Positions 813 through 24,793 of a stretch of 24,793 nucleotides of DNA are shown in pieces. The notes under the pieces were generated by a model, which was given only the letters and a program-made list of their open reading frames with translations, searched no databases and was not told the origin of the DNA. The stretch is from Gemmatimonadota bacterium (lineage in GTDB: Bacteria > Gemmatimonadota > Gemmatimonadetes > Gemmatimonadales > GWC2-71-9), in contig JBBIMQ010000002.1 in NCBI GenBank assembly GCA_037444345.1, positions 1 through 24,793 on the forward strand. Reading direction: 5' to 3'. Position 1 is the first letter of the stretch. Every line of letters starts with the position of its first letter. Made by a program: the position numbers and the translations under genes.

Positions 813-881
813 ACACGTTACACCCAAACGTGTGTCCGAAACCCGGTCTGTCACGATTGCTTGACACGTGATCCGGGTCAC
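813..881. promoter_or_regulatory. Three inverted repeats (candidate operators) around the promoter
   Basis: ACACGTT-N7-AACGTGT (813-833), TGTCA-N8-TGACA (849-866, overlapping the -35), GTGA-N6-TCAC (868-881, in the spacer, CRP/FNR-family-like spacing). Confidence 0.45.
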
Positions 882-889
882 TTCATATT
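861..889 (+). promoter_or_regulatory. Putative sigma70-type promoter of the receptor cluster
   Basis: Perfect TTGACA at 861-866, 17-nt spacer, CATATT at 884-889, inside an AT-enriched patch of an otherwise GC-rich window. Predicted start site about 895-896. Confidence 0.6.
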
Positions 890-1071: not shown

Positions 1072-4000
1072 ATGAATGAAAGCTGTGTTGGCGCCTTCGC
1101 ACGCGGTGCGCGCTGGCTGGCGCTCGCGGCGGCCGCGTTGGGGCTCGGGGCGGGCACGCTCCACGCCCAGGCGACCGGGAAGATCGAAGGTCGAGTTCGC
1201 GATCAGGCCGGCGCCCCCATCCCCGGCGCCCAGGTGCGCATCGAGGGGACGGCGTTCGGGGCCGTGGCCAATAACCAGGGCTACTACTTCATCAACAACG
1301 TGCCCGCCGGCACGGTGGACCTGCGGGCGACGTTCGTGGGCTACCGGCCGTTCATCGCGACCGGGCTCCGGGTGCTGGCCGGCCAGACCATGACCCAGGA
1401 CTTCGTGCTGGAGCAGGCGCCGGTCGAGCTGGAGGAAATCGCGATCACGGGTGCGGCGGCCAACCCGCTGGTGCCACGGGACGAGGTCACCACCAAGCAG
1501 CGGGTGGACGGCACCTACACCGACGCACTCCCCGTGGACCGGATCGGCGCCGTGCTGGCACTGCAGCCGGGCGTGGTGGCGAGCCCGGCTGCCGGGCAGA
1601 TCACCATTCGCGGCGGCCGGCCGGACGAGGCGGCGGTGTACGTGGACGGGGTGCCGGTGACGCCGGGTGGTCGGGGGAACGCGTTCGTGGGGGTCTTCGG
1701 CCAGGGCACCGTGGCGCCCGCGCTCAACGTGTCGACTGGAGCCTTCGAGGAGGCGTCGGTCACGACCGGCAGTTCTTCGGCCGAGTTCGGCAACGCGCAG
1801 TCGGGCATCATCAACATCCAGACCCGGGCCGGCGGCCAGCGGTTCGCCGGGAGCGTGGGCTTCGAGAACGACGAGATCGGCGGCCTGAATCACAGCCTCG
1901 GGTTCAACCGGATCCAGGCGAACCTGAGCGGGCCCATCTGGCGGACCCTCACCTTCGCGGTGGGCGGCGACATCGAGGGGGCCAAGTCTTCGAGCACGGG
2001 GCTCAACGCCCAGCGGTACCCCATCTACGTCACCGCCGGGGTGGATACCACCGTGGCGGTGCCGTCCGGCAACGACACTGCCTTCGTGGACGTGTCCAGG
2101 TTCGCCATCTACCGGGGCGAGTGCGACGAGCACAAGAACAGCGTGAACCCCGGGATCCGGAACAACTACGGGCTCGACTGCCGCGGCGCGCGCAACCCGG
2201 CATCCAACAACACCAGCTACCGGGTGAACGGGAAGCTCCAGTACACTTACGGGACCGGCAGCCGGATCGCGCTTTCGGCCTATCGCAGCCAGGACCAGAA
2301 CCGGATTTTCGACAACGACGCCTACCTGAACCTGTACAATCCGCAGGCGCTCAGGGCCGTCTGGAGCGCCAACAACGTGGTCACGCTGAACTGGACCCAG
2401 AACCTGTCCAAGTCGGCGGAGCGGGCCCTGGCGCTCGAGACGTTCGCCTCGTACCAGTGGGACCGCGCCATTCTGGGTCCCCTCACTCGGAGCGGCGAGG
2501 AGGCGACCCGGGATCCGTTCGGCGGCTTCTACCTCAAGCGGTACGACTTCCTCTTCGATTTCGACAACTTCCCGCTCAACGACCAGCTCATCAAGAACTT
2601 CCGGCTCAACACCGGCCGGCGGTCGCCGTTCGACCTGGCCAACACGTCGCAGTATGCGCTGATTGACGCCTACCGGAACAACGCCTACGGCATCCAGGGA
2701 TGGTCCGAGGGCGGGGGGCCGACCGCCCGGCTGTCCCTCTACCGGGAGGACCGGGCGATCGGCAAGGCCAACCTCGACTGGCAGGTGGACCGCTACAACC
2801 GGGTGAAGCTGGGCGGGGAGTTCACCAAGTACTATATCTTCAGCTACTCGTCCGGGCTCGTGAGCCAGGCGTTCTCCGACGCCTATCACGAGAAGCCCAC
2901 GCGGTGGAACGCCTTCATCGAGGACCGGCTGGACCTGGGCGACGTGGTGGTGGTGGGCGGGGTTCGCTACGACTGGTACAAGACCGGGGCGAGCCGGCCG
3001 TACTTCACCGACAGCCTGGGGAACCGCACCTGGTTCCCGCGGATCAGCTCGATGCCGGGCTTCGATCCCAACAACCCCGAGGCGATCTTCGTCGAGGACA
3101 AGAGCCACGACTACCTGAGCCCGCACATTCAGGTGTCGTTCCCGGTGACCGACCGGACCAACTTCCGGCTGTCGTACGCGCACCAGGTGCAGGCGCCCAA
3201 CTTCAACACCATCCTGGGCGGGATCAACACCGACCTGAGCGTCACCAACACCAACCACGTGTACGGCTCGGATCTGGATTTCGGCCGGACGATCACCTTC
3301 GAGTTCGGGATCCGGCACTCCTTCAGCGACGACATGGTGCTGGACGTCTCGGCGTATAACAAGGACAAGCTGTCCGACGCGGCGGGGCGACTGCTCTCGT
3401 TCTTCGATCCGTTCAAGAAGCAGAACGTGGACATCCGGGTAATCACCAACGCCGACTTCGGCAACGCCCGGGGGATTGACGTCCGGCTCGACCGGCGGTT
3501 CGGGGAGCTGTTCAACGGCACCATCGCCTACACCTTCGAGGACGCCAAGAACACCGGCTCGGACCCGTTCACCTACATCAACTTCGGGTCGCGGGTGCTG
3601 AATGCGCTGGCGGGCGGGAATGCTCCGCCGCCTCAGGCCGCGCTGCCCACCAACCAGAACCGGCCGCACAACCTGGCGGGCCAGCTTGCGCTCAGCTTCC
3701 CCAACAACTGGCAGCAGGGGACCACGTTCGGGTCCATTCTGGAGAACTTCGGGATCTTCGCGATCTTCCGGTTCGCCTCGGGGACGCCGTACACCCGGTG
3801 CCCGCCGGAAGACAGCGGGAACGAGAGCGTGTTCTCGGGTCAGGTGTGCAGCCGTGGCCGGCTGGCCAGCGACTTCAACGGTGCCCGGCTGCCGACCCTG
3901 AAGCAGTTTGACGTCCGCTTCACCAAGGGCTTCAAGCTCCGGGGTGTGGATCTCACGGCCTACGCGGACGTGCGGAACATTTTCAACTTCGAGAACATCC

Positions 4001-4377
4001 TCTCGGTGTTCACCACGACGGACGACATCCGCAACAACACCGAGCGGGACATCAACCGGAAGGCTGACCTCGACGCCTTTGCCGCCGAGGCTCAGCGGAA
4101 CGGCGTGCTCCTGTCCGACAACTCGATTGACTTGACCTTCGGCGGGGCGGTGGCCGGCGGTTGCGGCGGCTGGGCCCGGCAGGATGGCGCCCCCTCGGCG
4201 CCCAACTGCGTGTACATGATCAGCTTTTTTTTTAGCTTCGGGAACGGCGACCACATCTTCACGGTGCAGGAGCAGACTCGGGCATCCGACGCGGCGTACT
4301 TCGCGCTCGCCCGGGGGCAGAACGCCTTCACCGGCCCGCCCCGGCGCATCCGGTTGGGACTGGAGCTCAACTTCTAG
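1072..4377 (+). CDS. TonB-dependent outer-membrane receptor (1101 aa) with N-terminal carboxypeptidase-regulatory-like domain
   Basis: SD GGAGGA at 1059-1064 before ATG 1072. Signal peptide ending LHA-QA; GKIEGRVRD..GYYFINNVPAGT N-terminal domain; TonB-box-like VELEEIAITG; plug motifs LQPGV, IRGG..VYVDGVP, AEFGNAQSGIINIQT; barrel strands; C-terminal RIRLGLELNF ending in Phe. Confidence 0.92.
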   Translation: MNESCVGAFARGARWLALAAAALGLGAGTLHAQATGKIEGRVRDQAGAPIPGAQVRIEGTAFGAVANNQGYYFINNVPAGTVDLRATFVGYRPFIATGLRVLAGQTMTQDFVLEQAPVELEEIAITGAAANPLVPRDEVTTKQRVDGTYTDALPVDRIGAVLALQPGVVASPAAGQITIRGGRPDEAAVYVDGVPVTPGGRGNAFVGVFGQGTVAPALNVSTGAFEEASVTTGSSSAEFGNAQSGIINIQTRAGGQRFAGSVGFENDEIGGLNHSLGFNRIQANLSGPIWRTLTFAVGGDIEGAKSSSTGLNAQRYPIYVTAGVDTTVAVPSGNDTAFVDVSRFAIYRGECDEHKNSVNPGIRNNYGLDCRGARNPASNNTSYRVNGKLQYTYGTGSRIALSAYRSQDQNRIFDNDAYLNLYNPQALRAVWSANNVVTLNWTQNLSKSAERALALETFASYQWDRAILGPLTRSGEEATRDPFGGFYLKRYDFLFDFDNFPLNDQLIKNFRLNTGRRSPFDLANTSQYALIDAYRNNAYGIQGWSEGGGPTARLSLYREDRAIGKANLDWQVDRYNRVKLGGEFTKYYIFSYSSGLVSQAFSDAYHEKPTRWNAFIEDRLDLGDVVVVGGVRYDWYKTGASRPYFTDSLGNRTWFPRISSMPGFDPNNPEAIFVEDKSHDYLSPHIQVSFPVTDRTNFRLSYAHQVQAPNFNTILGGINTDLSVTNTNHVYGSDLDFGRTITFEFGIRHSFSDDMVLDVSAYNKDKLSDAAGRLLSFFDPFKKQNVDIRVITNADFGNARGIDVRLDRRFGELFNGTIAYTFEDAKNTGSDPFTYINFGSRVLNALAGGNAPPPQAALPTNQNRPHNLAGQLALSFPNNWQQGTTFGSILENFGIFAIFRFASGTPYTRCPPEDSGNESVFSGQVCSRGRLASDFNGARLPTLKQFDVRFTKGFKLRGVDLTAYADVRNIFNFENILSVFTTTDDIRNNTERDINRKADLDAFAAEAQRNGVLLSDNSIDLTFGGAVAGGCGGWARQDGAPSAPNCVYMISFFFSFGNGDHIFTVQEQTRASDAAYFALARGQNAFTGPPRRIRLGLELNF

Positions 4378-4384
4378 GGGAGTG

Positions 4385-4433
4385 AACGGTGGTCCGGCCC
4401 GGGGTCACCCGGGCCGGGCGCGACCGCCGTTTT
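4385..4433 (+). terminator. Intra-cluster stem-loop (partial terminator or mRNA-stabilising hairpin)
   Basis: CCGGCCCGGG-GTCA-CCCGGGCCGG, a 10-bp perfect stem at 4394-4417. Outer stem AACGGTGGT(C)/GACCGCCGTT. Short T run at 4430-4433. Confidence 0.5.
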
Positions 4434-4453
4434 ACACCGAGCGAGGCAACGAC

Positions 4454-7400
4454 ATGCACTCACGATTCCGTTCGAACGGCGCGCTGCTGGCCGTCCTGGC
4501 CGCCCTGATCGCGGGGTTGCTGCTCGCCCCGGCGTCGGCGTCGGCCGAGCCCCAGCCGGGCGCCAAGAAGAGGGGCTTCCGGCTCTTCGCGCGCGCCCTG
4601 GGCGCGATGACCATCAACCGCATCTACTGCGGGCTTGCCTCCGACGGGCGGGTCTGCGTGGACTCGACCAACTCGTCCACCATCGGTGGCGGTTTCTGGC
4701 CGAAGGGCACGGCCGACCAGTACATCTTCAACTCCGGGCTCCAGGTGGCGGGGATCATTGGCCCGGACGGCGGTCCCTGGGCGGGCGACACGGTGGGCGG
4801 GTTCTTCTTCGACCCCAAGGGCACCACGGAGCACGGCGAGGAAGTCCGGCCGATCTTCAACACGGCCAACCCCGATGACATCCCGTCCGGGGTCTGGCCC
4901 GCGGCGGCCTGTGTCCCGTTCGGCGACGCGGAGGAGACCCTTTTCCACCCGCTGCTCCGCGAGGATCCCACCACGGTGGGCGACCCGAACTACCCCAATC
5001 ACCCGCTCGGGTGCCGCCGCTCGGCCTCGCAGGGCGACGTGTGGTGGATGAGCTGGGAGGGTAACCCTGCGCTCAACGCCGGCCGCACCCACCCGCTCGG
5101 GATCTTGGTGGAAACCCGGGGCATGGGGTGGAACTTCCCGGCGGGGAACGAGGACATCCTTTACTTCATCTATACCTTCTACAACGTGACGGCCTCGGAT
5201 CCGAACGTATATGGCGCTTCGATCCGGCCGGACATGCGTGCCATCCTCCAGCAGAAGGGCGCGGAGTTCCAACAGCTCAACAACGCCCGGTTCGGCATCA
5301 CCCTCCCCCCGGGCGGGTACACGATCACCAACCTGTTCGCGGCGTTCGCGCGGGACGACGACGTGGCCGAGGCGGGCGCCAACTACTCGTCGGTGAACTT
5401 GCCGTTCGCGCTGGGCTATACCTACGAGCACGCCTTCAGCCAGCCGGTGGGCTGGACCTTCGACCCCGGCATCTTCCAGGCCCCCTTCTTCGCGGGCTCG
5501 GGCTTCACCGGGGCCAAGTACCTCCGGAGCCCCACCGGGGCGGGCGAGATCCAGCTTTTCTCGAACACGATCAACGGCCGGCCCTTCGCGGGCGCCGTGA
5601 ACGACCCGCGCGACACCAAGCAGCTGTACCGCTATCTCTCGGGCACGCTCAATCCGGCCCTGGGCGACGACCCCTGCAACACGGGCGACCCCACCCAGAC
5701 CCGGATCTGCTTCGTGAACAACAACTCGCCACAGGACATGCGGTTCTTCCAGTCCTCGACGCCGCTCACGCTGGCGCCGGGCGAGTTCGGCTCGATCGTG
5801 GTGGCGTACATCTTCGCGCCGCCGGTGCGGACGGCCGGCTGCGGGGCGGCCTGCGACGTCAAGCCGGGCGACCCGCGGGTGCTGACCAGCGCCACGACGC
5901 TCATCACGCAGGGGGCCAACACCATTGACACGCTCTCGGGCTTCGTGAGCTACAACGACGCCAACAGCGACGGGATCGTCACCCAGAACGAGTTCACGGT
6001 GGTGCCCGGCTCGCTCCTCGGCAAGGCGCTGGTGGCGCAGGCGGTGTTCGATAACCAGTTCCTGCTCCCCTTCGCGCCCGATCCGCCGGACTTCTTCCTG
6101 ATCCCGGGCGACAACCAGGTGACGGTGCTCTGGCGGCCCAGCGCGTCGGAAACCAACGGCGATCCGTTCTTCGCCATCGCGAATCAGCCCACGGTCGGCG
6201 GGAGCCCCAACGCGCTGTACGATCCGAACTACCGCCAGAATGACGTGGAGGGGTACCGGATCTACCGCGGGCGGGTGGACAATCCCAATGAACTCCGGCT
6301 TCTTGCGCAATTCGACTACAAGGGGACGGTGATCAGCGACTTCACCGGGCAGGTGAACCCCACGGATGTCTGCGCGCCGGAGGTCGGCGTGAACGCGGGT
6401 TGCCCGGTGCCGTTCCAGCCCAACCTGAAGGACGGGACCCAGCTCACCCAGCACGTGGACGTCCCGCTGGTGGGCGACGTGGTGCAGGTGCGTACCGGCG
6501 ACCGGTCGGCGCTGGCCTCGGGGACGATTGACACGATCATCGCCTCGATTGACACCACGGTGAACCCGCCCGACACCACCTTCACGACGATCTTCATTCC
6601 GAACAAGGCGGTGATCACCCGGGCCGACACCCTGATGACCGGGGCGGCGGCGCGGGCGCAGGGCGGTCCGTTCCCCAAGCTGAGCGACACCGGGGTGCCG
6701 TTCGTGTTCGTGGACAACACCCCGCGGAACAACTTCCGCTACTTCTACTCGGTGGTGGCGTTCGACGTGAACTCGATCGAGTCGGGTCCCACGAGCCTCG
6801 AGTCGCAGCGGCGAACCAAGTCGGTCACCCCGGTGCGGCCGGCTTCGAACGCGGTTTCCACCGGGTCGCTGAGCACGAACATCGTCGGGCGCGGGGTCAA
6901 GATGGACACCGTGTTCCGGAGCGTGCCGGCGCTCGATCCGACCGACGGCAGGTTCAGCGGGCCGTTCCCGCCGGCCGACGGCGCCTCGCTGGGCTTCGTC
7001 GGTCAGTTTGCCAAGGAAGTCGTGGCGACTTCGGGGGCGCTGCGGGCGCGGCTCGACAGTCTGTATCCGGGCCAGGTGGATTACTCCGGCTGCTGCGCCG
7101 CCGGCCCTGTCGGCTTCCCCTCGGTCTACGTGTGGACCGCGTTCGCCGGTACCGACAGCTTCAAGCTCCGGATCCCCATTCAGGTGGATCTGGGTATCGA
7201 GCAGAAAGGCAATCAGCTCTTCCAGGCGCTCAAGATTGACCAGGCCCTGGCCTCGCGCTTCGGCGGCGACAGCACCTATCGGCTCCAGGCGCAGCTCGAG
7301 CTGACCGTTCCGCCCCTGGGCTTCCTGGGTGGCTCGGTGCTCTCGTCGGTCCTGGGGGAACCGGGCTTCACCGGCACCGACTACGCCCAGTTGGGCTACA

Positions 7401-8593
7401 CAGCCGCCCGCTACAACGGCCCCCGGTGGTTCGACGGCCCCTCGCCGCAGAACAACGAGACGGAGCCCAACCCGAACAAGGGTGCCTGCGGCAGCGGGCT
7501 CACGACCCAGTGCGCCAGCACCACCAGCTTCAACAACGGGGGGAAGCTGACTGGGGTGACCACGGTCTATATGCCGATGGCGTACACCATGTTCAACCGC
7601 GAGTGGCGCTCGATGGATGCCTTTACTGGCACCGTCCGGCGCGCCGCGGACTACAACGTGTACTGGGGCGCGGGCGGGGTGATTGACTCGGTGGTGGACG
7701 TGACCCACAACGTCCAGGTCCCGTATGCCGCCAATGGGGAGATCGGTGCGAACTGGGCGGTGCTCAACACGAGCGGGCAGGGGGCCGGCAGCTTCGATGG
7801 CCGGCCGGCGGTGTTGACCCCGCTCGACTGGTTCTGCGTCGAGCCGGTCCGCACCCTCCAGGGGCTGGCGGGGACCACGGCGAACGGCAATCCGTTCTTC
7901 CCCTGCTCGAGTGCTGCGGGATTCACGCTGAGCAACACGGCTCAACTCGGGACCATCGCCTTCGGGGCTGGCAACGCCCAGTCCACGACCGGGGCGCAGA
8001 GCCCGCGGAACCCCGCCTTCACGGCGACGGAACCGGGCTTCTCGCTCTACGTGGCGGGCACCATCACGTTCTTCGAGCTCTCCGCGCTGCCGGCGAGCGG
8101 CACGGTCTGGTCGCTCCGCGACTACGTGGGGAACATCCTCGGGGGCCGGGGTGCTCCTGCGGGTGACCTTGGCAACTACAAATTCCTCGCCGCTCCGCGG
8201 CCGTTCAACGCGATAGGGGCCGAGGTGGCGGTGAGCTACAACGTGGATAACCGGATCCGTGCCGTGCGCGGGGCGGACCTCCGGCAAGTCCACACCGTGC
8301 CCGACCCGTACTACGTGACCAACGAGTTCGAGCAGAGCACGGACAACAAGGTGATCAAGTTCGTGAACCTGCCGCAGCAGGCGATCATCCGGATCTACTC
8401 GTCGAGCGGGGTGCTCGTGAACATCCTCGAGCACAACAGCCCGACCTGGGGCGGGGAGGAGAGCTGGAACGTCCGGAACCGCAACAACCAGGTGGTCGCG
8501 AGCGGCGTGTATTTCTATCACATCGAGTCCAACTCGGGCGGTGCCACCGCCCGACGGGTGGGCCGGTTCACGATCGTCAACTTCGCCCAGTAG
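4454..8593 (+). CDS. Large secreted protein (1379 aa) with FnIII-like domain, EF-hand-like loop and T9SS type-A/FlgD-like C-terminal domain; function unknown
   Basis: GAGG SD before ATG 4454; Sec signal (LLAVLAALIAGLLLAPASASA-EP). Split FnIII-like segment APDPP..VTVLW..EGYRIYR..YFYSVVAFD. C-terminal VPDPY..IRIYSSSGVLV..WNVRN..VASGVYFYHIE..GRFTIV. Confidence 0.8.
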   Translation: MHSRFRSNGALLAVLAALIAGLLLAPASASAEPQPGAKKRGFRLFARALGAMTINRIYCGLASDGRVCVDSTNSSTIGGGFWPKGTADQYIFNSGLQVAGIIGPDGGPWAGDTVGGFFFDPKGTTEHGEEVRPIFNTANPDDIPSGVWPAAACVPFGDAEETLFHPLLREDPTTVGDPNYPNHPLGCRRSASQGDVWWMSWEGNPALNAGRTHPLGILVETRGMGWNFPAGNEDILYFIYTFYNVTASDPNVYGASIRPDMRAILQQKGAEFQQLNNARFGITLPPGGYTITNLFAAFARDDDVAEAGANYSSVNLPFALGYTYEHAFSQPVGWTFDPGIFQAPFFAGSGFTGAKYLRSPTGAGEIQLFSNTINGRPFAGAVNDPRDTKQLYRYLSGTLNPALGDDPCNTGDPTQTRICFVNNNSPQDMRFFQSSTPLTLAPGEFGSIVVAYIFAPPVRTAGCGAACDVKPGDPRVLTSATTLITQGANTIDTLSGFVSYNDANSDGIVTQNEFTVVPGSLLGKALVAQAVFDNQFLLPFAPDPPDFFLIPGDNQVTVLWRPSASETNGDPFFAIANQPTVGGSPNALYDPNYRQNDVEGYRIYRGRVDNPNELRLLAQFDYKGTVISDFTGQVNPTDVCAPEVGVNAGCPVPFQPNLKDGTQLTQHVDVPLVGDVVQVRTGDRSALASGTIDTIIASIDTTVNPPDTTFTTIFIPNKAVITRADTLMTGAAARAQGGPFPKLSDTGVPFVFVDNTPRNNFRYFYSVVAFDVNSIESGPTSLESQRRTKSVTPVRPASNAVSTGSLSTNIVGRGVKMDTVFRSVPALDPTDGRFSGPFPPADGASLGFVGQFAKEVVATSGALRARLDSLYPGQVDYSGCCAAGPVGFPSVYVWTAFAGTDSFKLRIPIQVDLGIEQKGNQLFQALKIDQALASRFGGDSTYRLQAQLELTVPPLGFLGGSVLSSVLGEPGFTGTDYAQLGYTAARYNGPRWFDGPSPQNNETEPNPNKGACGSGLTTQCASTTSFNNGGKLTGVTTVYMPMAYTMFNREWRSMDAFTGTVRRAADYNVYWGAGGVIDSVVDVTHNVQVPYAANGEIGANWAVLNTSGQGAGSFDGRPAVLTPLDWFCVEPVRTLQGLAGTTANGNPFFPCSSAAGFTLSNTAQLGTIAFGAGNAQSTTGAQSPRNPAFTATEPGFSLYVAGTITFFELSALPASGTVWSLRDYVGNILGGRGAPAGDLGNYKFLAAPRPFNAIGAEVAVSYNVDNRIRAVRGADLRQVHTVPDPYYVTNEFEQSTDNKVIKFVNLPQQAIIRIYSSSGVLVNILEHNSPTWGGEESWNVRNRNNQVVASGVYFYHIESNSGGATARRVGRFTIVNFAQ

Positions 8594-8603
8594 TCCACGG
8601 ACC

Positions 8604-8636
8604 GGGGGTCGGGGCCCGAGGAGGGGCCCCACCCCC
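8604..8636 (+). other. Intergenic GC-rich stem-loop without U-tract
   Basis: GGGGGT(c)GGGGCCC-GAGGAG-GGGCCCC-ACCCCC: 13 bp with a 1-nt bulge, between the CTD-protein stop and the PorV-like SD (AGGAGA, 8645-8650). Confidence 0.5.
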
Positions 8637-8660
8637 ACGCAGCCAGGAGAAAGGCAACCC

Positions 8661-9785
8661 ATGAGTTACGTGACGACCAAGCGCCTGGTCCTGCTGGCGG
8701 GCCTGCTGGGAGCGGCTCCCGCGGCGGTCGCCGCGCAGGCCGGCACCGATCAGGACAACACGCCCTACGGCACCACCTCGGCGGAGTTCCTCCTGCTCGG
8801 GGCCGGGGCCCGCGGCACCGCGCTGGGCGGCGCCTTCTCGGCCATCGCCAACGACGTGAGCGCGCTCTACTACAACCCGGCCGGCGCAGCCCTGATGACC
8901 CGGCCCGGGTTCATGGTGGGCACCTACGAGTACGTGGCCGACACCCGCTACAGCTGGGGCGGCATCGCCTTCCCCTTCGGCGGCGGGGCCCGGGTGGTGG
9001 GCCTCCAGGTCGGGACCTTTGGCTTCAAGGACCAGCCGGTGTACACCGTGGATGACCCGGAGGGGAACATCGGGTCGGTGTACTCAGTGAGCGAAACCTT
9101 CATCGGCGCCACCTACGCCGAGAACTTCTCGGACCGCTTCTCCGCGGGTCTGACCGCCAAGTTCATCACGGACAACCTCGGAGACGCCAACGGGAAGGCG
9201 TTCGCGGTGGACTTCGGCACCAACTTCCACGCCTCGCTGAGCGGGCATCCGGTGAAGTTCAGCTTCGTGCTCTCCAACCTGGGCACCAACCTGGACTATA
9301 GCGGCGACGCGCTCAATGCCGAGGTGCCGCGGGAACCGCTGCCCGGCCAGGAGGAGGTACCGACCATCCCGCAGCCGGCCCGGTTCCGCACCAAGTCGTT
9401 CCCGCTTCCCACGACCTTCCGGGTCGGCCTGTCGTACGACCTCGTCACTGGGGGGAACAACCGCCTCACGGTGTTGTCGGACTTCAACCAGCCCAACAAC
9501 AACCGGGCCGGTTTCTCCGCCGGCGCCGAGTGGATGAGCCGGAACCTGGGCGGGTCGCCCTTCAGCATCTCGCTCCGGGGGAGCTACACCTACTACCCGT
9601 CGAACAACATCAGCCCGAGGACGCTCTCCACGGCGCTGAACGATGAGGAGAATCTCCAGGGCCTGGCCGGGGGCGGCGGGATCATGTTCGGCCAGGGGAA
9701 CTTCAGCCTGAGCCTGGATTACGCCTACAAGTACATGGGCGTTCTGGGCGACACCCACTTCTTCAGCGTGGGCCTCGGCTGGTGA
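8661..9785 (+). CDS. PorV/PorQ-family (UPF0164-like) outer-membrane beta-barrel protein, 374 aa
   Basis: SD AGGAGA; signal peptide AVA-AQ. Family N-terminal signature TTSAEFLLLGAGARGTALGGAF..ANDVSALYYNPAG; FAVDFGT and LSNLG strands; C-terminal HFFSVGLGW ending in an aromatic residue. Confidence 0.85.
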   Translation: MSYVTTKRLVLLAGLLGAAPAAVAAQAGTDQDNTPYGTTSAEFLLLGAGARGTALGGAFSAIANDVSALYYNPAGAALMTRPGFMVGTYEYVADTRYSWGGIAFPFGGGARVVGLQVGTFGFKDQPVYTVDDPEGNIGSVYSVSETFIGATYAENFSDRFSAGLTAKFITDNLGDANGKAFAVDFGTNFHASLSGHPVKFSFVLSNLGTNLDYSGDALNAEVPREPLPGQEEVPTIPQPARFRTKSFPLPTTFRVGLSYDLVTGGNNRLTVLSDFNQPNNNRAGFSAGAEWMSRNLGGSPFSISLRGSYTYYPSNNISPRTLSTALNDEENLQGLAGGGGIMFGQGNFSLSLDYAYKYMGVLGDTHFFSVGLGW

Positions 9786-9804
9786 GGACGGGCGCTGGCG
9801 GGGA

Positions 9805-11250
9805 ATGACGCAGTGGTGGTGGACCGGGCTCGCGGCAGTGGCAATGGCCGCGGGTCCGGCGGTGGCGAGGCAGGTGGAACCGGGACCCCTGGTACGGGCG
9901 TACCGGTTCTACCGGGCCGAAGGAAATCAGACGCGGGTGACCGCCTTCGTCGAGGTCCCCTACGCGCTGCTCGAGGCGGCCGGCGACGGCCCCAATGCGG
10001 CGCTCCGCTGGGCAGTGGCGGTCCGGATCACGGACGAAGCGGGCCGGCAGCTCTACCAGAGCGCCTGGCCTGGAAAGGCGAGCGTCGAACTCAAGGCGGC
10101 TCAGGCGTCAGCCATGGAGATGCTGGACTTCAGCCTGGCCCCGGGGCGTTACCATCTGGAGGTGGCGGTTGAGGACTCGGTATCGGGACGCCGGCTCGTC
10201 TCCAGCACGCCGGTTGACGCCTACAGCGCTCCCCCGGCGGTGTCGGACCTGATGTTGAGCCCGGCCATGCGCCTCGCCACCGGCAGCGACACGATGCCCC
10301 GCCAGGGCGAGCGGCGGTGGGGGAACACCCTGGTGACCGCGAGCACCCGGCTCCGGTTGACCCCGGTGCGGTCCAAGGCCTACTACCTGCTGGAGGCGTA
10401 TTCGGCCGAGGGGCGGGCGTGCACCATGCAGGTGCAGGTCAAGGACACCTCTGGGCGGGCGATCGTGGAAACCCGGCCCACGGCGGTCCAGATCGCCGCG
10501 GGCGGCTCGGTGCTCAAGGGTCAGCTCGATCTCGCCGGCTTGCCGTCCGGGCGATACCAGATGGTGGTCAAGCTGGATCTGGGCGGCCAGCAGGAGGAGC
10601 GGTCCGAGCCGTTCGAGATGGCGGATTTCCATGCGACGCTCGAGCGCGAAGCCGCGCGACTCGCCGCCGAGCGAGAGACGGACGAAGGCTACTTCGGCCA
10701 GATGAACGAGGAACAGCTCGACGAGGCCTTCGCCCCGCTCTTCTACATCGCCGGGCGCGACTCGCTCGCGGCGTGGAAGCAAGGCCTGTCGCTCGCGGCC
10801 AAGCGGCGGTTCCTGACCCAGTTCTGGCAGTTTCGCGATCCTACCCCGGCAACGCCGCGGAACGAAGCCCGGGAGGCCTTCTACGCCAAGATCGAGTACG
10901 CGAACCGAACCTACGGCGAGAAGAGCGGCCGGTCAGCCCTTCCCGGCTGGCGCACCGACCGGGGCCGGATCTACATCAAGTACGGCCCGCCCTCCGAGCT
11001 GCTGGATCGGCGGGTGGCCTCTCACGGGCCGCCCTACGAGGTCTGGCGCTATACGCGAGGGAAGGAACAGTACTACCTGTTCGTGGATCGGACCGGGTTC
11101 GGCGCCTACAAGCTGATGTTCACCAACGATCTCCGGGAGACGAGCAATCCGGGGTTCCGGGAGATCATCGGCCCCGATGCGCTCCAGGACGTGAGCCGGT
11201 TCCTCGGGATCGACCTCTTTTTCGAGGAGTCCCAGGGACGGGCGCCCTAG
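9805..11250 (+). CDS. GWxTD domain-containing exported protein, 481 aa
   Basis: Signal peptide (AVA-RQ). C-terminal FW..RDPTPATPRNE..FY.KIEYAN..PGWRTDRGRIYIKYGPP..YEVWRY, the diagnostic GWxTDRG motif. Confidence 0.9.
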   Translation: MTQWWWTGLAAVAMAAGPAVARQVEPGPLVRAYRFYRAEGNQTRVTAFVEVPYALLEAAGDGPNAALRWAVAVRITDEAGRQLYQSAWPGKASVELKAAQASAMEMLDFSLAPGRYHLEVAVEDSVSGRRLVSSTPVDAYSAPPAVSDLMLSPAMRLATGSDTMPRQGERRWGNTLVTASTRLRLTPVRSKAYYLLEAYSAEGRACTMQVQVKDTSGRAIVETRPTAVQIAAGGSVLKGQLDLAGLPSGRYQMVVKLDLGGQQEERSEPFEMADFHATLEREAARLAAERETDEGYFGQMNEEQLDEAFAPLFYIAGRDSLAAWKQGLSLAAKRRFLTQFWQFRDPTPATPRNEAREAFYAKIEYANRTYGEKSGRSALPGWRTDRGRIYIKYGPPSELLDRRVASHGPPYEVWRYTRGKEQYYLFVDRTGFGAYKLMFTNDLRETSNPGFREIIGPDALQDVSRFLGIDLFFEESQGRAP

Positions 11251-11320
11251 CAGGACGAGGTAACGAGGGAATCGGACGCGGGCGGAACTCAACGAGTCAT
11301 TTGAACGCGAGGGAATTGTC

Positions 11321-13300
11321 ATGAACCGTGTGCTACGTAGTTCGGTCGTGCTCGCGGCCGCCGTCGGGGCCTTCGCCGCCTGCAAGGGAGATCCGACCGA
11401 GGATCTCCGGCAGGGCGTGGATCACCTGGTCGCGAACCCCACGGTGCTCTTCATTGACGAGGGACTGAGCCAGAACGTCGTCGTCGAGGCCGTGGATGCC
11501 CAGGGCAACCAGGTCGTGACTGAGTTCTTCCTGGCCAACGTCGGCACCGGGATCACCGTGGTTCGCGATACCACCTTCAACCCGGTGTACGCCGGCGAGA
11601 AGCTCACCGCGCCGGGCACGGTGACGCGGGCGCGGTTCATCGTGACGGCGGTGCAACAGGTCTCGACCAGCTTCACCGTCGGAGCGGGCGGCCGGACCAT
11701 CACGATCGCCGTCGCCACGATCCCCACGACGGCCGCCGCGGTCTTCGCGCCGACCAACCTGAACATCGGGGATACCCTCACCATCACCGCGCCCGGCTCC
11801 CTCAAGTTCACCCCGGCCTCGACGGTGAGCTTCGGAGCCGGCGCCTGCGCGGTGGTCCCGGGGAGCCTGGCCGCGGACAGCACCTCGCTCCGCTGCATCC
11901 CCTTCCCGGGCTCGACGGGGACCGCAACACTCAGCAACATGGTGACCACCTACTCGACGCCCGGGCCCGTCACGGTCACGGCCGCGTCCGGCATCACGAC
12001 CCCGCCGCTGCCCTCGCTGGTCCTGTCCCCCGCCGCCCCGGTGGCTGGCGACACGGTGACCATCACGCTCTCGGGTCTCTTCCGGTTGACGCCCGGTAGC
12101 GGCGCCACCGCCTCGGCCTGCGTGGCCGGCCCGCTGGCGCGGACCTTCCGGGTCTCGATCTCGGCGGATAGCCTGACGATCCGCTGCCTCATCGGCCCGT
12201 TCGCCAGCGGCAAGTTCCAGGTCACCAACGTTCAGCTCTCCGGCCGCGCCGTGGTCGGGCGGTTCCCCATGTCCACGGCGGCGGACGTGGTCACCGACAC
12301 GCTGCCCGCTTTCGCCGCGTCCAAGGGGACAGCCGCCATCGCCGACAACATCACGATCTCCGCGGTGGGCCGCTATCGGTTCATTCCCAGCGGGGCGAGC
12401 GCGACCAAGATCCGCGTGCCGGCGGGGGCCACCACCAGCACGCCGACCATCTCCAGCGACAGCATGACCATGAGCTTCCTCATCGGCCCGAACTGGGCCG
12501 GGGTGAAGGCCTCGCTGGACAGTGTGGTGATCTCGGGCGCGGCGGGGCTCGGCAGCTACCCGGTGCTCACCGACTCGGCGTTTTCCACGCCGGCCCTCAC
12601 GCAGTTCCCGGCCACACTGAGTAACCGGTTCCCGCAGCCCGGGGAAGTGGTGACCCTCACGGCCGGGTCGGGGTTCGGGTTCAACTCCAACGCGACGGTG
12701 ACGACCGGCGGCCGCCCCGCTGGGGTCATTTCTGTAACCGCCAATACGATTGACTTCGTGCCCATCCCAGGCACCGGCAAGGCGAAGCCGGTGGTGAGCG
12801 AGGTGGTGCTGACCAGCAACCCCGCTCTCCCGCTGATCCTGAGCGCCGGGGCCTACCTGACCCCCCCCGGCGGGTACCCGGGCACCGACGATTTCAGCAC
12901 GGCGCCGAACATCACCATGCCCCCCACCGGCCAGGTGACCTATATCGCCGATGCGGGGCCGTTTTTCGACGACCCGGGCGGCGTGTGCGTGGGCACCCTC
13001 GGCGGTCCATGCAGGATCTTCCAATTCACCATCGGGAGCACCCGTTCGTTCAGCTTCAATGCGACCTGGCAGGGTGCGACCGACCTGGGCATCTACTTCT
13101 TCGACTCCGGGCTCAATCTAGTCCCGGTCTTCGGATGCGACTCGAAGGGTGCCGGGGCCTCCGGGCAGCCGGAAACCTGCAATCTCAACAACCTGGCGCC
13201 GGGAACCTACTACATCGTGGTGGACACGTTCTCGGCGTTCTACTCGCCGCCCAACAACGTTGATCCGTTGAACTACCTGATCAAGATCACCGGCCTCTGA
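11321..13300 (+). CDS. Lipoprotein (659 aa) with four tandem Ig/IPT-like repeats and a C-terminal PPC-like domain
   Basis: SD GAGGGA; lipobox FAA-C. Repeats begin GDTLTIT, GDTVTIT, ADNITIS, GEVVTLT at 93-100 aa spacing. C-terminal DLGIYFFD..ETC..LAPGTYYIVVD. Confidence 0.75.
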   Translation: MNRVLRSSVVLAAAVGAFAACKGDPTEDLRQGVDHLVANPTVLFIDEGLSQNVVVEAVDAQGNQVVTEFFLANVGTGITVVRDTTFNPVYAGEKLTAPGTVTRARFIVTAVQQVSTSFTVGAGGRTITIAVATIPTTAAAVFAPTNLNIGDTLTITAPGSLKFTPASTVSFGAGACAVVPGSLAADSTSLRCIPFPGSTGTATLSNMVTTYSTPGPVTVTAASGITTPPLPSLVLSPAAPVAGDTVTITLSGLFRLTPGSGATASACVAGPLARTFRVSISADSLTIRCLIGPFASGKFQVTNVQLSGRAVVGRFPMSTAADVVTDTLPAFAASKGTAAIADNITISAVGRYRFIPSGASATKIRVPAGATTSTPTISSDSMTMSFLIGPNWAGVKASLDSVVISGAAGLGSYPVLTDSAFSTPALTQFPATLSNRFPQPGEVVTLTAGSGFGFNSNATVTTGGRPAGVISVTANTIDFVPIPGTGKAKPVVSEVVLTSNPALPLILSAGAYLTPPGGYPGTDDFSTAPNITMPPTGQVTYIADAGPFFDDPGGVCVGTLGGPCRIFQFTIGSTRSFSFNATWQGATDLGIYFFDSGLNLVPVFGCDSKGAGASGQPETCNLNNLAPGTYYIVVDTFSAFYSPPNNVDPLNYLIKITGL

Positions 13301-13319: not shown

Positions 13320-13360
13320 AAAACGCGAGGCCCCCGCGGGTGCGGGGGCCTCGCTGTTTC
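13320..13360. terminator. Bidirectional intrinsic terminator
   Basis: Perfect 13-bp stem GCGAGGCCCCCGC-GGGT-GCGGGGGCCTCGC (13325-13354), with AAAA upstream and TGTTT downstream, between convergent genes. Confidence 0.85.
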
Positions 13361-15330: not shown

Positions 15331-17277
15331 TCATTCCCGTTCCCCGGCAGTGGCCGAGATCTGTTCCGGCCGTTCCAGCAGCAGGATCGGGCCGCGTTCC
15401 GGCCGGTGCCCGAAGGGCACCGCCCGATCCACCCCCATGGCGAGGAAGAGCAGGGCCAGGTACCGGAGTGAATACTTATACATCCGCCACGCCGTCGGCG
15501 TGATCTCGCGCTCGCGGAGCAGCCTGACTGCGTACCAGCAGAGCCGCCCGCCCAGGAGCAGGGCCGCCGCGGCGTAGAACAGCCCCAGCGCCCCGATGAC
15601 CGCGGGCATGACCGTGAGCGGAAGGAGGAGCGCGGTGTAGATGAGCATCTGGACCTTGGTGTACCGCTCGCCCGCCACCACCGGCATCATCGGGATCCCG
15701 GCCCGGGCGTAGTCCTGCCGCTTCATCAAGGCCAGCGCCCAGAAGTGCGGTGGCGTCCAGAAAAAAATGATCGCGAAGAGATAGAGTGCCGCGAGGTCGA
15801 GCGACCCCGTCACCGCCGACCAGCCGACCAGGGGGGGGAAAGCCCCGGCGGCCCCTCCAATCACGATGTTCTGCGGGGAGAGCCGCTTGAGCCAGATGGT
15901 GTAGACGAAGATGTAGAACAGGTAGCCGGCCAGCGCGAGCCCGGCAGCCAACGGGTTGACCAGGTACCAGAAGATCCCGAACGCCGCCGCGCCCTGCAGC
16001 ACCCCCAGGCCCAGCGCGGCCCAGCCGGGGATGCGGCCGGCCGGGATGGGGCGGAGCCGGGTGCGGGTCATGAGCCCGTCAATGTCCCGGTCGAACCACA
16101 TGTTGACGGTGTTGGCCCCGCCGGCCATCAGATAACCTCCGACCACCACCCAGAACACGAGCGCGGGGCTCGGCGGGCCATGGTCCGTGATGATCATCGG
16201 GGCCACGGTGGTGAGGAGGAGCAGCGAGATGATCCGCGGCTTGGTGAGGGCCACCAGGTCGCCGAGGAGCGAGGGGCGGGATTCCACCGCGGGCGACTCG
16301 ACCGGTGCGGCGGGGATGGCTTCGGCCGGCATCGGGCGCTCGAGCGGGCTCCGGCTCAGCCGGAAGACCAGCACCACCAGGCTGGCCCAGATCAGGGTTC
16401 CCAGCAGCAGATGCAGCGCGCGCCACGATGGCGGGAACACCTGCAGCACCATCGCTGCCGCGACGCCGAGCTGGAGGAGGGTGAGTCCCGCCACCAGCCA
16501 GGCCGCCCGCCTCACCCCGGCGCCATACCCGATGCGGCCGCCGGCGCTGGCCCGGGCGTGCCGGGAGATCCGGGCGGCCGCCGAGAGCGCGAGCAGCGCG
16601 AACCCGAACGCGAAGATCCGGTGGATCCAGTGGATCGCCCCCTGGGTGGAAGCCGGTGGCCCCCCCCTCGTTCCCTGGCACAGGGGGAAGCCCAGGCAAT
16701 AGGGACCGGCGTGGAGGTTGGCCGTAAGCGCCCCGAACAGGATGACGATGAACCCGAACGCCGCCGTGAAGGCGGCGAGCCGTCCCGTCGGGGTGGAAAG
16801 GAGCGGAGGCGGGACAACCGGCTCCGTCACCGCTTCCTCCCTCGCGCTTCGCAGCGCCGCCACGATCAGGATCGCTAGCAAGACCATGGCGTTGAGCAGG
16901 TGAACCACGACCACCGCAGGCGGCAGCTCCAGCTTCACGATCACCGGCCCGAGCAGCACCTGGATGGCCAGCACCAGGCCCGCGAGCAGGGCGGGATTCC
17001 GAAGCTCGGGACGGTCCCGGTGGTGCCTCCAGCCCTGCCACGCGAGGTAGGCCACGGCGGCCGAGAGCAGCGCCGCGACCCACCGATGGCTGACCTCGAT
17101 CAGCGTGGGGAGGTCGAGGGGGGGGAACCACTCGCCGTCGCAGAGGGGCCAGTGGTCGCCGCAGCCCATGCCCGAGCCCGTGATCCGCACCACCCCGCCC
17201 AACACGATCAGGCCCGCGGTGAGCGCCGCGGCGAGCACTGCGGTCCGATGGTACCGTCTGGGATGCTGCTGTGTCAT
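15331..17277 (-). CDS. ctaA-ctaB: Fused heme A synthase (CtaA/COX15) and heme O synthase (CtaB/CyoE, protoheme IX farnesyltransferase)
   Basis: SD GAGGTG. N-half: GMGCGDHWPLC, IEVSHR, VHLLN, CLGFPLC, HWIHR, ALHLLLG. Pro-rich linker. C-half: LTKPR, NMWFDRDIDGLMTRTRLRPIPAG, KRLSPQNIVIGGAAGAFPPLVGW, WTPPHFWAL. One uninterrupted frame. Confidence 0.92.
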   Translation of the reverse strand: MTQQHPRRYHRTAVLAAALTAGLIVLGGVVRITGSGMGCGDHWPLCDGEWFPPLDLPTLIEVSHRWVAALLSAAVAYLAWQGWRHHRDRPELRNPALLAGLVLAIQVLLGPVIVKLELPPAVVVVHLLNAMVLLAILIVAALRSAREEAVTEPVVPPPLLSTPTGRLAAFTAAFGFIVILFGALTANLHAGPYCLGFPLCQGTRGGPPASTQGAIHWIHRIFAFGFALLALSAAARISRHARASAGGRIGYGAGVRRAAWLVAGLTLLQLGVAAAMVLQVFPPSWRALHLLLGTLIWASLVVLVFRLSRSPLERPMPAEAIPAAPVESPAVESRPSLLGDLVALTKPRIISLLLLTTVAPMIITDHGPPSPALVFWVVVGGYLMAGGANTVNMWFDRDIDGLMTRTRLRPIPAGRIPGWAALGLGVLQGAAAFGIFWYLVNPLAAGLALAGYLFYIFVYTIWLKRLSPQNIVIGGAAGAFPPLVGWSAVTGSLDLAALYLFAIIFFWTPPHFWALALMKRQDYARAGIPMMPVVAGERYTKVQMLIYTALLLPLTVMPAVIGALGLFYAAAALLLGGRLCWYAVRLLREREITPTAWRMYKYSLRYLALLFLAMGVDRAVPFGHRPERGPILLLERPEQISATAGERE

Positions 17278-23245: not shown

Positions 23246-24331
23246 CTACGTTCTGACCCTGGCCAGGAGCCAGATCCCCGCCCCCAGGAAGATCAGATTG
23301 GGCGTCCAGGCGGCCGCGACCGGGTTCATGACGCCGCTTGCTCCGACCGCCTTCGAGAGCTGGATGAGCGAGAGAAAGGTTACCGTGGTCCCCAGGCTGA
23401 TCGCGATCCCGATCGCGGTGCCCTGGCGGGGGGAGCTCATCGCGAGGGGGGCGCCGAAGAGGGCGATGATGAAACACGTCGCCGGCAAGGCCACCTTCAA
23501 CGCCCGGTCCACCTCGAGCTTGGCGGTATCGTTCCCCGACCGCTTGAGCGACGCGATGTAGCGCGACAGCTCGGCATACCGCATCTCCTCGGGGGCTTTG
23601 GGTTCCACCAGGAGATCGGCCGGTTCCTCGCGCATCGCCCGGAGCCGGGCGCTCCGGAACTGCATGCTCAGCTGATCGTCCACGCCCGCTAGCCGCCGGG
23701 TCCACCCGTGGTGCAGGCGCCAGAAGCCGCGGGCATCGTCGTAGGTGGCGCTGTCCGCCGAGATCGCGAGGCTCGGGTAATCGGGCCCGCGCCCCTGCCG
23801 TTCCAGCACCACCTGGCGCAACACCCGGTCCTCCACTTCCAGGGTCCGGATCGTATAGACCCAGCCCTGGTCGGCCCGATAGACGAAGTTGTAGCGCGAG
23901 GTCTTGGGCCGGGCCTGTTTCGCCTTCTGCAGTTCGAGCTGACGGCTGGTCGCTTCCGGCGCCAGCTCCCCCACGATGTAGGCCATCCCCGAGGCGACGA
24001 GCGCCGCCAGGTAGATCGGTAGCGCCAGCCGGTGAAAGCTCTGCCCGCTCGCCTTCGCTGCCGTGAGCTCCGAGTGGCGCCCCAGGTTCCCCACCGTGAA
24101 CACGGTCGCGAAGAGGACCGCGGCCGGCATCACCAGGTAAATGTGCTCCGGCAGCGCGTACACGTAGCTCCTGACGATCTCCGAGAGCGTGAGCCCGCGG
24201 TCCAGGAGCTTCTCGAGGTTGTCCGTCAGGTTGATGAGGACCGACACGACGGGAAACCCCACTGCCGTGAGAAGGAAGATCAACACCCACGACCGGAGGA
24301 CGTATCGGTCCAGGATGCGAAATCGCCTCAC
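23246..24331 (-). CDS. lptG: LptF/LptG-family LPS export permease (second of the pair, LptG-like), 361 aa
   Basis: ILDRYVL, LLFATVFTVGNLGRHSELTAAKASG, periplasmic beta region, KVALPATCFIIALFGAP, AAWTPNLIF. GTG start overlaps the upstream TGA (24328-24331). Confidence 0.85.
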   Translation of the reverse strand: MRRFRILDRYVLRSWVLIFLLTAVGFPVVSVLINLTDNLEKLLDRGLTLSEIVRSYVYALPEHIYLVMPAAVLFATVFTVGNLGRHSELTAAKASGQSFHRLALPIYLAALVASGMAYIVGELAPEATSRQLELQKAKQARPKTSRYNFVYRADQGWVYTIRTLEVEDRVLRQVVLERQGRGPDYPSLAISADSATYDDARGFWRLHHGWTRRLAGVDDQLSMQFRSARLRAMREEPADLLVEPKAPEEMRYAELSRYIASLKRSGNDTAKLEVDRALKVALPATCFIIALFGAPLAMSSPRQGTAIGIAISLGTTVTFLSLIQLSKAVGASGVMNPVAAAWTPNLIFLGAGIWLLARVRT

Positions 24332-24793
24332 GGTGCCGCCCGCCGCCGGAAGGGTACCGTGAGCGCGTACCAGAGCTCGGCCAGATCGCCGCCGCGCGTC
24401 GAGCCGGACTCCCGGTTCACCCGGAAGAGCCCGTACACTCCCAGCGTTGCGAAAATGAGATTCGGTGCCCACATCGCCACCCAGGGCGGGACGATATTCT
24501 TGTCCCCCAGGCCTTCCCCGGCGATCAGCCCCACGTAGTAGATCGCAAAGACGAAGAGCCCGCCGCCAATCACCAGCCCCATGCCGCCTCGCGGGAACCG
24601 GAGGGCCATCGGGATCCCCACGATCACGAACACCAGGCAGGCTGCGCTGATCGCCCACTTCTTGTGGACCTCGACCGCGTACTGGTCGGCACGGAGCTCG
24701 GCCGAGCGGACCTGATCAATGGCCGCGGCCACCTCACCCCAGGGGGTGAGCAGGACCGGCCGCGGCCGCGGCGGCTCCGAAGCGGGGCCCGGC
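24328..24793 (-). CDS. lptF: LptF/LptG-family LPS export permease (first of the pair, LptF-like), 5'-partial
   Basis: Open to the right edge; YAVEVHKKWAISAACLVFVIVGIPM..RGG..YYVGLIAGE..AMWAPNLIF; directly upstream of the lptG-like gene. Confidence 0.82.
   Translation of the reverse strand, partial: PGPASEPPRPRPVLLTPWGEVAAAIDQVRSAELRADQYAVEVHKKWAISAACLVFVIVGIPMALRFPRGGMGLVIGGGLFVFAIYYVGLIAGEGLGDKNIVPPWVAMWAPNLIFATLGVYGLFRVNRESGSTRGGDLAELWYALTVPFRRRAAP

Follow-up and report, generated by a model that had tools for sequence, protein, structure and literature searches.

A cluster of five genes in a 24,793-nt stretch of DNA from a Gemmatimonadota bacterium (contig JBBIMQ010000002.1; the whole stretch is hereafter the window) probably captures a nutrient at the cell surface. 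In this cluster, a TonB-dependent receptor is encoded next to a 1379-aa secreted protein, here called BIG, which ends in a C-terminal domain (CTD) like those of type IX secretion system (T9SS) cargo, and to an outer-membrane barrel of the PorV family. Judging by the gene inventory, the translocon protein SprA and this one PorV-type barrel appear to have just one cargo, BIG, which is encoded with the barrel and linked to the receptor; no motor or sortase was detected. To our knowledge, the T9SS has been worked out almost entirely in Bacteroidota, where many cargoes share one PorV and are re-anchored by a sortase, and where a motor driven by protons provides the power for their release. The source genome, that of a soil or sediment bacterium of the order Gemmatimonadales, is a 2.8 Mb metagenome assembly (442 contigs, 86% complete, about 69% G+C), of which the window is contig C2; the sequencing runs in which the sequence is present are all DNA runs, among them runs from sediment and subsurface metagenomes. 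The genes of the cluster are:

1072 to 4377, plus strand: TonB-dependent receptor, 1101 aa, with a signal peptide, CarboxypepD_reg domain, TonB-box-like VELEEIAITG, Plug and a large barrel.

4454 to 8593, plus strand: BIG, a secreted protein of 1379 aa that belongs to an unnamed family and ends in a T9SS type-A-like CTD.

8661 to 9785, plus strand: PorV/PorQ-family outer-membrane barrel, 374 aa (NF033709, 147 bits, cut-off 90).

9805 to 11250, plus strand: GWxTD protein, 481 aa, with a signal peptide, two sandwiches of immunoglobulin (Ig)/fibronectin type III (FN3)-like type and a C-terminal alpha/beta GWxTD domain (about 10714 to 11070).

11321 to 13300, plus strand: putative lipoprotein, 659 aa, with Ig-like (TIG) repeats and a C-terminal PPC domain; fast-evolving.

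The gaps between these open reading frames (ORFs) are 76, 67, 19 and 70 nt, and all five products start with a hydrophobic, signal-like N-terminus (translations judged by eye), which agrees with an earlier reading of the window, made from its letters and translations (the sequence-only reading). That reading had also seen neither a SusD-like gene nor a glycoside hydrolase; indeed, domain searches of the five genes gave matches neither to the SusD family nor to any glycoside hydrolase family.

The link to the T9SS starts from the C-terminal end of BIG, whose parts are:

4586 to 6067, plus strand: N-terminal beta-supersandwich with insertions (model residues 14 to 507), with a predicted local distance difference test (pLDDT) mostly above 90.

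6068 to 6841, plus strand: FN3 domain with a large insertion (model residues 508 to 765; Z about 12).

6842 to 8146, plus strand: middle region, made up of beta-rich domains that match no named structure; conservation is lowest here, with a median identity of 38%.

8288 to 8590, plus strand: type-A-like T9SS CTD; the best-conserved part of BIG.

The sole family matches of BIG are borderline, fall on its last 100 residues and are to Por_Secre_tail (TIGR04183 / PF18962), CHU_C (22 bits against a cut-off of 27) and the C-terminal ends of the models for PorZ and PorU. The CTD follows an Ig-like pattern, PxP...IRIY...G...ASGVYFY...G(R/K), in which a basic residue (G-R, sometimes G-K) is kept near the end; the terminus reads G-R-x-T-I-V-N-F-A-Q and is not a Lys-rich tail. 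The median identity of the CTD is 65%, compared to 38-50% elsewhere in BIG, and its tail is the only Por_Secre_tail (type-A CTD) match in the source genome. In 20 relatives, 0-3 type-A tails were counted per genome, nearly all of them on BIG-sized frames, and nearly all of the strong ones directly precede a PorV-family gene.

The barrel that follows BIG matches the PorV/PorQ family model NF033709 over 324 of its 326 positions but stays below the cut-offs of the equivalog models for PorV (NF033710, 53 against 250), PorQ (NF033711, 69 against 220; the best-scoring of them) and PorV2 (NF052325, 54 against 325). Its profile matches the PorV of Flavobacterium johnsoniae (6H3I_F) at E 1.1e-8, and its Pfam matches are UPF0164, PorV and Toluene_X (FadL type), with no DUF560. 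A complex model of the barrel with the CTD scored 0.91, 0.91 and 0.89, whereas the best of three controls reached 0.00; in the calibration, the mark was reached by 58 of 80 solved complexes and by 2 of 110 mismatched pairs, custom alignments being used. The model thus supports a predicted binding of the CTD of BIG to the PorV-like barrel. Conservation is highest at the same two partners, namely at the CTD within BIG and at the barrel among the five gene products (median identities: barrel 72%, receptor 59%, BIG 53%, GWxTD protein 51%, lipoprotein 35%), which fits a lasting interface. The sequence-only reading had proposed that a dedicated PorV paralogue holds BIG. The predicted contact speaks for the holding part, while the notion of a paralogue beside a canonical PorV had to be dropped for the source genome, since the barrel is the only credible PorV-family gene found in this 86%-complete assembly.

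The same reading had taken the cluster to be T9SS-related, and a profile search of the source genome for sprA, gldK/L/M/N and porU bore this out for sprA: a full-length SprA (TIGR04189, 460 bits, cut-off 200) is encoded on contig C115, while the gld genes and porU were not found. Contig C115 continues the window, as follows from synteny with a three-contig genome of the same genus (G137). The gene order there is M24 - receptor - BIG - PorV - GWxTD - lipoprotein - ABC - CtaAB - permease - NadCAB - LptFG - 389-aa ORF - SprA - M28. In this order sprA starts about 16.5 kb after the cluster, and the window, with its end region at 23246 to 24658, stops just short of it. SprA follows BIG on the same strand, at a distance of 14-27 kb, in at least 25 of the Gemmatimonadota genomes sampled. 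The 389-aa ORF, seen on contig C115 of the source genome together with SprA (L086:2-1171 and 1182-7355), has no family match and ends 10 nt before SprA; it may encode a translocon partner.

Of 151 Gemmatimonadota genomes sampled, 121 have SprA and 57 have BIG, and BIG never occurs among them without SprA. In the bacterium's own family (71 sampled genomes), the 40 genomes with BIG all encode SprA, and BIG is missing from each of the 13 that have no SprA, a co-occurrence with a one-sided p of about 4e-6 if the relatedness of the genomes is ignored. In another family of the phylum (f2; genomes G083, G150, G107 and G118), SprA scores 818-1251 bits, which puts it far nearer to the Bacteroidota model than the SprA in the family of the source genome (about 460 bits), and BIG is absent; GldM was not found in the three f2 genomes searched for it (G083, G150 and G118). 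From these scores, two SprA lineages seem to coexist in Gemmatimonadota.

The motor and ring of the known machinery were looked for in the source genome and in up to 25 relatives, some of them single-contig. Three models of the GldK/L/M/N set (TIGR03523, TIGR03517 and TIGR03513) gave no match in these genomes, and TIGR03525 gave only generic matches far below its cut-off; no positive control matched the Gld models, so divergent versions could have been missed. The only match to PorU (NF033707) in the source genome is the CTD of BIG, with 17.7 bits against a cut-off of 420. PorP/SprF (TIGR03519) and type-B CTDs (TIGR04131) were likewise not found, and since no control genome matched these two models, divergent versions may have escaped here too. 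Since none of GldK/L/M/N, PorU, PorP/SprF and type-B CTDs was found, the system does not look like a side branch of a full Bacteroidota-type T9SS.

The order of the genes was the next point on which the sequence-only reading could be judged, and it is kept across dozens of Gemmatimonadales species. A scan with the barrel, one genome per species, gave 122 relatives, the best 80 of which all belong to Gemmatimonadota. Counted over PorV-anchored Gemmatimonadales loci from different species with enough flank, BIG immediately precedes the PorV-like gene in 63/63 loci and has the receptor upstream of it in 52/56; downstream, the GWxTD gene is found in 67/72 and the lipoprotein in 53/61. A homologue from a metagenome, 36% identical, likewise keeps the order receptor-BIG-barrel-GWxTD. 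The six BIG-like genes sampled from f10, a distant Gemmatimonadota family (54-65% G+C; genomes G022, G025, G030, G040 and G049, loci L095-L100) with 2-5 BIG-like matches in each genome, all stand in a receptor-BIG-PorV triad, at identities to the cluster of 23-35% for BIG, 33-36% for PorV and 27-44% for the receptor. No GWxTD gene was detected beside these six triads, whose neighbours are housekeeping genes. By gene content, the f10 triads resemble the expansion of polysaccharide utilization loci, without hydrolases or regulators. The conserved core, as read from these loci, is the receptor-BIG-PorV triad with the BIG-PorV pair inside it, and the GWxTD protein and the lipoprotein are Gemmatimonadales accessories. 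The sequence-only reading had given these two proteins the same role, which fits the persistence of the triad alone at identities as low as about 25-35%.

In a scan with a degenerate motif, nearly all matches came from Gemmatimonadota. Receptor-BIG at 41-53% identity was also seen on three short contigs (L105, L156 and L168; 65-69% G+C) whose bins bear the labels Acidobacteria, Phycisphaerales and Zixiibacteriota; this may reflect mis-binning or a wider range. As these odd-phylum contigs may be mis-binned, a range outside Gemmatimonadota is drawn solely from look-alikes in Atlas and AFDB.

Upstream of its CTD, BIG was modelled with AlphaFold over residues 32-1231, with a pLDDT of 87. The N-terminal supersandwich is of the type seen in galactose mutarotase and in the N-domains of glycoside hydrolase (GH) families GH15, GH65, GH94 and GH116 (Z in VIA up to 19.2), and Foldseek likewise matched it to GH94/GH116 N-domains. 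The FN3 domain that follows matches titin and other FN3 domains with Z of about 12. Neither Foldseek nor VIA revealed a peptidase (C25) fold, PorZ-like beta-propellers or an (alpha/alpha)6 glycosidase barrel in the model. The idea that BIG is a PorU homologue, taken from the adjacency of porU and porV, was therefore rejected: there is no C25 fold, and the matches to the PorU and PorZ models span the CTD only. Among predicted structures, the closest to BIG are T9SS-tailed proteins from WOR-3, Rhodothermota and Bacteroidota, all of them uncharacterised, and a sequence search with BIG against the PDB gave no matches. The family comprises 730 clusters at 50% identity (E<=1e-3), which are named 'hypothetical' or 'T9SS type A sorting domain-containing'.

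The first gene of the cluster has the features of a TonB-dependent receptor, i.e., a Plug domain (PF07715, 32.6 bits, cut-off 23.9) and a predicted C-terminal barrel ending in an aromatic residue (...LELNF). Partial matches to FepA and heme receptor models were obtained, and the SusC model TIGR04056 (cut-off 368) gave 36 bits, in a match confined to the N-terminus. No barrel Pfam model, including the Oar-type PF25183, matched the receptor of the window at E<=0.01, whereas its homologues in related triads match TonB_dep_Rec_b-barrel, OMP_b-brl_4 and PF25183. A sequence search against the PDB gave a single, insignificant match.

From the gene content, the synteny, the genome-wide inventory, the folds and the modelled CTD-PorV interface, all of which the analysis shows directly, we infer that BIG is exported through SprA, keeps its CTD and touches the receptor, and also which way transport would run and what the ligand may be. 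In this sequence of events, BIG would cross the inner membrane by Sec, and the SprA translocon, whose gene starts about 16.5 kb after the cluster, would be the place where its type-A-like CTD is recognised. The PorV-like barrel would then take up the CTD, which probably stays uncut, given that no PorU sortase was found, so that BIG would be tethered to the barrel non-covalently. On the surface, the supersandwich would bind a ligand, possibly a glycan, and pass it to the neighbouring receptor. BIG would thereby stand in for a SusD-type or Slam-dependent surface lipoprotein, with the GWxTD protein and the Ig/PPC lipoprotein as lineage-specific accessories. The strict, deeply conserved and repeatedly duplicated linkage to the receptor argues that BIG works with it, and the carbohydrate-binding-type head suggests ligand capture. 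The display of BIG by SprA and PorV is the part we regard as likely; anchoring by an uncleaved CTD is slightly favoured, and joint uptake by BIG and the receptor is a tentative proposal that falls a little short of even chances. For the whole chain, from SprA export through the hold of the uncleaved CTD on its cognate PorV to the hand-over of a ligand to the receptor, we see the chances as evenly balanced.

Several observations weigh against this reading. The score of the CTD of BIG against Por_Secre_tail (TIGR04183, cut-off 23) is borderline, with 20.3 bits in hmmscan and 24.9 bits in the genome scan. The model of the CTD-barrel complex used custom alignments, and its pass may draw on memory of solved PorV-CTD structures. 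The source genome is only 86% complete. The GldK/L/M/N motor and ring, which in Flavobacterium energise release from SprA, were not found, in searches that had no positive control. Supersandwich domains are often non-binding scaffolds within enzymes; contact of BIG with the receptor is proposed from gene linkage, and capture of a ligand from the fold. Genes for a hydrolase, a regulator or an inner-membrane transporter are missing from the cluster. In some genomes, a second BIG-PorV pair is isolated among unrelated genes, with no adjoining receptor gene, and a metagenomic contig (L089:10001-17328) carries tandem BIG-like genes (1219 and 1223 aa) adjoined by no receptor, PorV or GWxTD gene. These tandem genes without triad partners indicate that the N-terminal module is also used outside the triad.

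The solitary BIG-PorV pairs and the tandem BIG-like genes would suit a BIG that acts as a surface coat, adhesin or matrix-binding protein shown by SprA and PorV, the other genes being merely co-regulated envelope neighbours. BIG is indeed large and beta-rich with no catalytic fold, it is the only CTD protein in the genome, and the sandwiches of the neighbouring GWxTD protein are like those of the biofilm scaffold RbmA. The adjacency of receptor and BIG, however, persists to about 25% identity and through repeated duplication, which is hard to explain without a shared function; we consider a coat or adhesin unlikely. Alternatively, the TonB-dependent barrel might be an energy coupler or exporter for BIG and not an importer. 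As a coupler, it would belong to a stripped-down T9SS of SprA and PorV, without GldLM/GldKN or sortase, that serves one or a few giant cargoes in many Gemmatimonadota; TonB-ExbBD would replace GldLM and pull the carrier with its cargo from SprA, and the receptor would be part of the display machine. As an exporter, it would itself carry BIG out of the cell, in the manner of Oar and PopC in Myxococcus. This would account for the failure to find GldK/L/M/N in the source genome or in near-complete relatives, and it agrees with a receptor that scores below the SusC cut-off and with the sampled distant BIG-PorV pairs, each of which has its own CarboxypepD_reg/Oar-type receptor and no uptake-related neighbours. 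Yet TonB-dependent receptors are overwhelmingly importers, the solitary BIG-PorV pairs have no adjoining receptor gene, families that have SprA but not BIG would in any case require a different source of energy, and the Gld searches had no positive control. Both the coupler and the exporter version therefore appear distinctly improbable.

It might also be argued that BIG is no cargo at all and that BIG and the barrel are general T9SS attachment parts serving other cargo, as counterparts of PorU-PorV or PorZ-PorQ. In the attachment complex of Porphyromonas gingivalis, PorV holds PorU and PorQ holds PorZ, and porU adjoins porV there. The sole matches of the genome to the PorU and PorZ models lie in the C-terminus of BIG, and PorQ is the highest-scoring equivalog model of the barrel. 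The PorU and PorZ matches are nevertheless restricted to the CTD, BIG has neither the C25/gingipain fold nor PorZ-like propellers, and no other type-A CTD cargo was found for such parts to serve. Moreover, BIG is absent from 64 of 121 sampled SprA-positive genomes and present in 2-5 copies in others. Fold, patchy distribution and copy number thus make attachment parts very improbable, and BIG as a displayed, ligand-capturing partner of the receptor remains the reading preferred here.

Compared with known systems, this proposed receptor-linked display of BIG is close in its parts to type-A cargo at SprA. In F. johnsoniae, carrier loops bind the CTD inside SprA, and GldK/L/M/N energise the release of carrier and cargo (PMC10994853). 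The solved structures of PorV and type-A cargo (6H3I, 8GL6) and the cluster share a FadL-like PorV-family barrel, an Ig-like CTD pattern, SprA and the CTD-barrel interface, which is a predicted one in the cluster. In Bacteroidota, however, one PorV serves tens of cargoes, as opposed to one barrel per one co-encoded cargo here; the barrel of the cluster lies below the equivalog cut-offs, GldK/L/M/N and PorU were not found, and the CTD is the most conserved part and has no Lys-rich tail. PorU of the Bacteroidota T9SS is the sortase that removes the CTD and links the cargo to anionic lipopolysaccharide; unlike PorU-PorV and PorZ-PorQ, the pair described here involves a BIG with neither a sortase fold nor a PorZ fold.

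Type-B cargo, in comparison, is held by cognate barrels, as in SprB-SprF and PG1035-PorP (PMC9143113, PMC12618676). The likeness to these anchors lies in a cargo gene beside its own 14-strand barrel, in paralogous pairs that multiply together and in the thought that an intact CTD holds the protein on the surface. In contrast to SprF/PorP, a type-A CTD is combined here with a PorV/PorQ barrel and tied to a TonB-dependent receptor. Clusters of the Slam/type XI secretion system (T11SS) type also combine a receptor, a surface binder and a dedicated barrel (TbpA/TbpB/Slam and HphR/HphA/Slam; PMC8560813, PMC8406197). An importer, a ligand-capture protein and a co-encoded display barrel make for a resemblance in working, not membership: the Slam barrel is of the DUF560 family, occurs in Proteobacteria and serves small lipoproteins or hemophores, whereas a PorV/FadL-like barrel is present here. 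With SusC/SusD (RagA/RagB), the cluster has in common a CarboxypepD_reg receptor, a co-encoded surface partner with a carbohydrate-binding-type fold and a SusE/F-like Ig-repeat lipoprotein, but it has no SusD, glycoside hydrolases or regulators, and the partner is a 1379-aa T9SS-tailed protein and not a lipoprotein. By analogy, the cluster would work like the SusC/SusD or Slam clusters while being a member of neither. The CarboxypepD_reg-Plug-barrel architecture of the receptor also recalls Oar, the TonB-dependent transporter of Myxococcus that is needed for the secretion of PopC; in the present case, the T9SS tail, the PorV barrel and SprA offer a separate export route.

Reviews say of the T9SS in Gemmatimonadetes only that it 'may be present' (PMC11285876), and a TXSScan survey recorded the system only in Bacteroidetes (PMC4793230). 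In our literature search, no paper was found on the T9SS in Gemmatimonadota, on a receptor-cargo-PorV cluster or mentioning GWxTD. The sequence-only reading, which knew of no functional study of such triads, is thus matched by the absence of any description in that search.

As for the two accessory proteins, the GWxTD assignment is supported by TIGR04514 (92.6 bits, cut-off 28) and PF20094 (40.9 bits, cut-off 26.9). The model of the protein (pLDDT 92) consists of the two Ig/FN3-like sandwiches and the alpha/beta GWxTD domain (model residues 254-446). Fold searches with it were dominated by the two N-terminal sandwiches, whose tandem arrangement resembles RbmA, and assigned no fold to the GWxTD domain itself; the GWxTD profile had no matches in the PDB. 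Four GWxTD-domain genes, including that of the cluster, are present in the source genome. The other three (contigs C17:12865-14226, C303:1353-3668 and C193:1154-3865), one of them with TPR repeats, are located next to DNA polymerase I, protein kinase, TPR and amidase genes, which are unrelated and uninformative contexts. The lipoprotein has a lipobox-like AFAAC with Cys21, a PPC match and a weak TIG match.

The sequence-only reading had placed one promoter and one strong terminator around the five genes, and candidates for both are present:

861 to 889, plus strand: sigma-70-like promoter match TTGACA-17-CATATT, 5' of the receptor gene; a consensus match only, at 10 of 12 positions.

13326 to 13355, no strand assigned: terminator-like G+C-rich hairpin of 13 bp between the convergent lipoprotein and ABC-exporter genes (dG -35.1 kcal/mol, z -5.6).

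With two sigma-70-like sites found against 0.7 expected, the evidence for the promoter is weak. The cluster is flanked by housekeeping genes, namely those for an M24 peptidase, a CtaA-CtaB fusion, an amino-acid permease, NadC, NadA, NadB and LptF/G. In the 648-aa ORF at 15331-17277 (minus strand), COX15/CtaA (heme A synthase) is joined to UbiA/CtaB (heme O synthase), which looks, by its domains, like a fusion of two consecutive enzymes of the heme A pathway. A T9 run is located at 4225-4233, close to the 3' end of the receptor gene.

If the proposed reading is true, display of BIG would represent a second way, besides SusD-type and Slam-dependent lipoproteins, of giving an outer-membrane importer a surface binder. 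The Gemmatimonadota that carry the cluster would offer a natural minimal system for what SprA and PorV do alone and for what powers them. It would also place the unstudied GWxTD domain in a functional context for the first time, and with it about 730 clusters (at 50% identity) of 'hypothetical' giant proteins, which are common in soil Gemmatimonadota.

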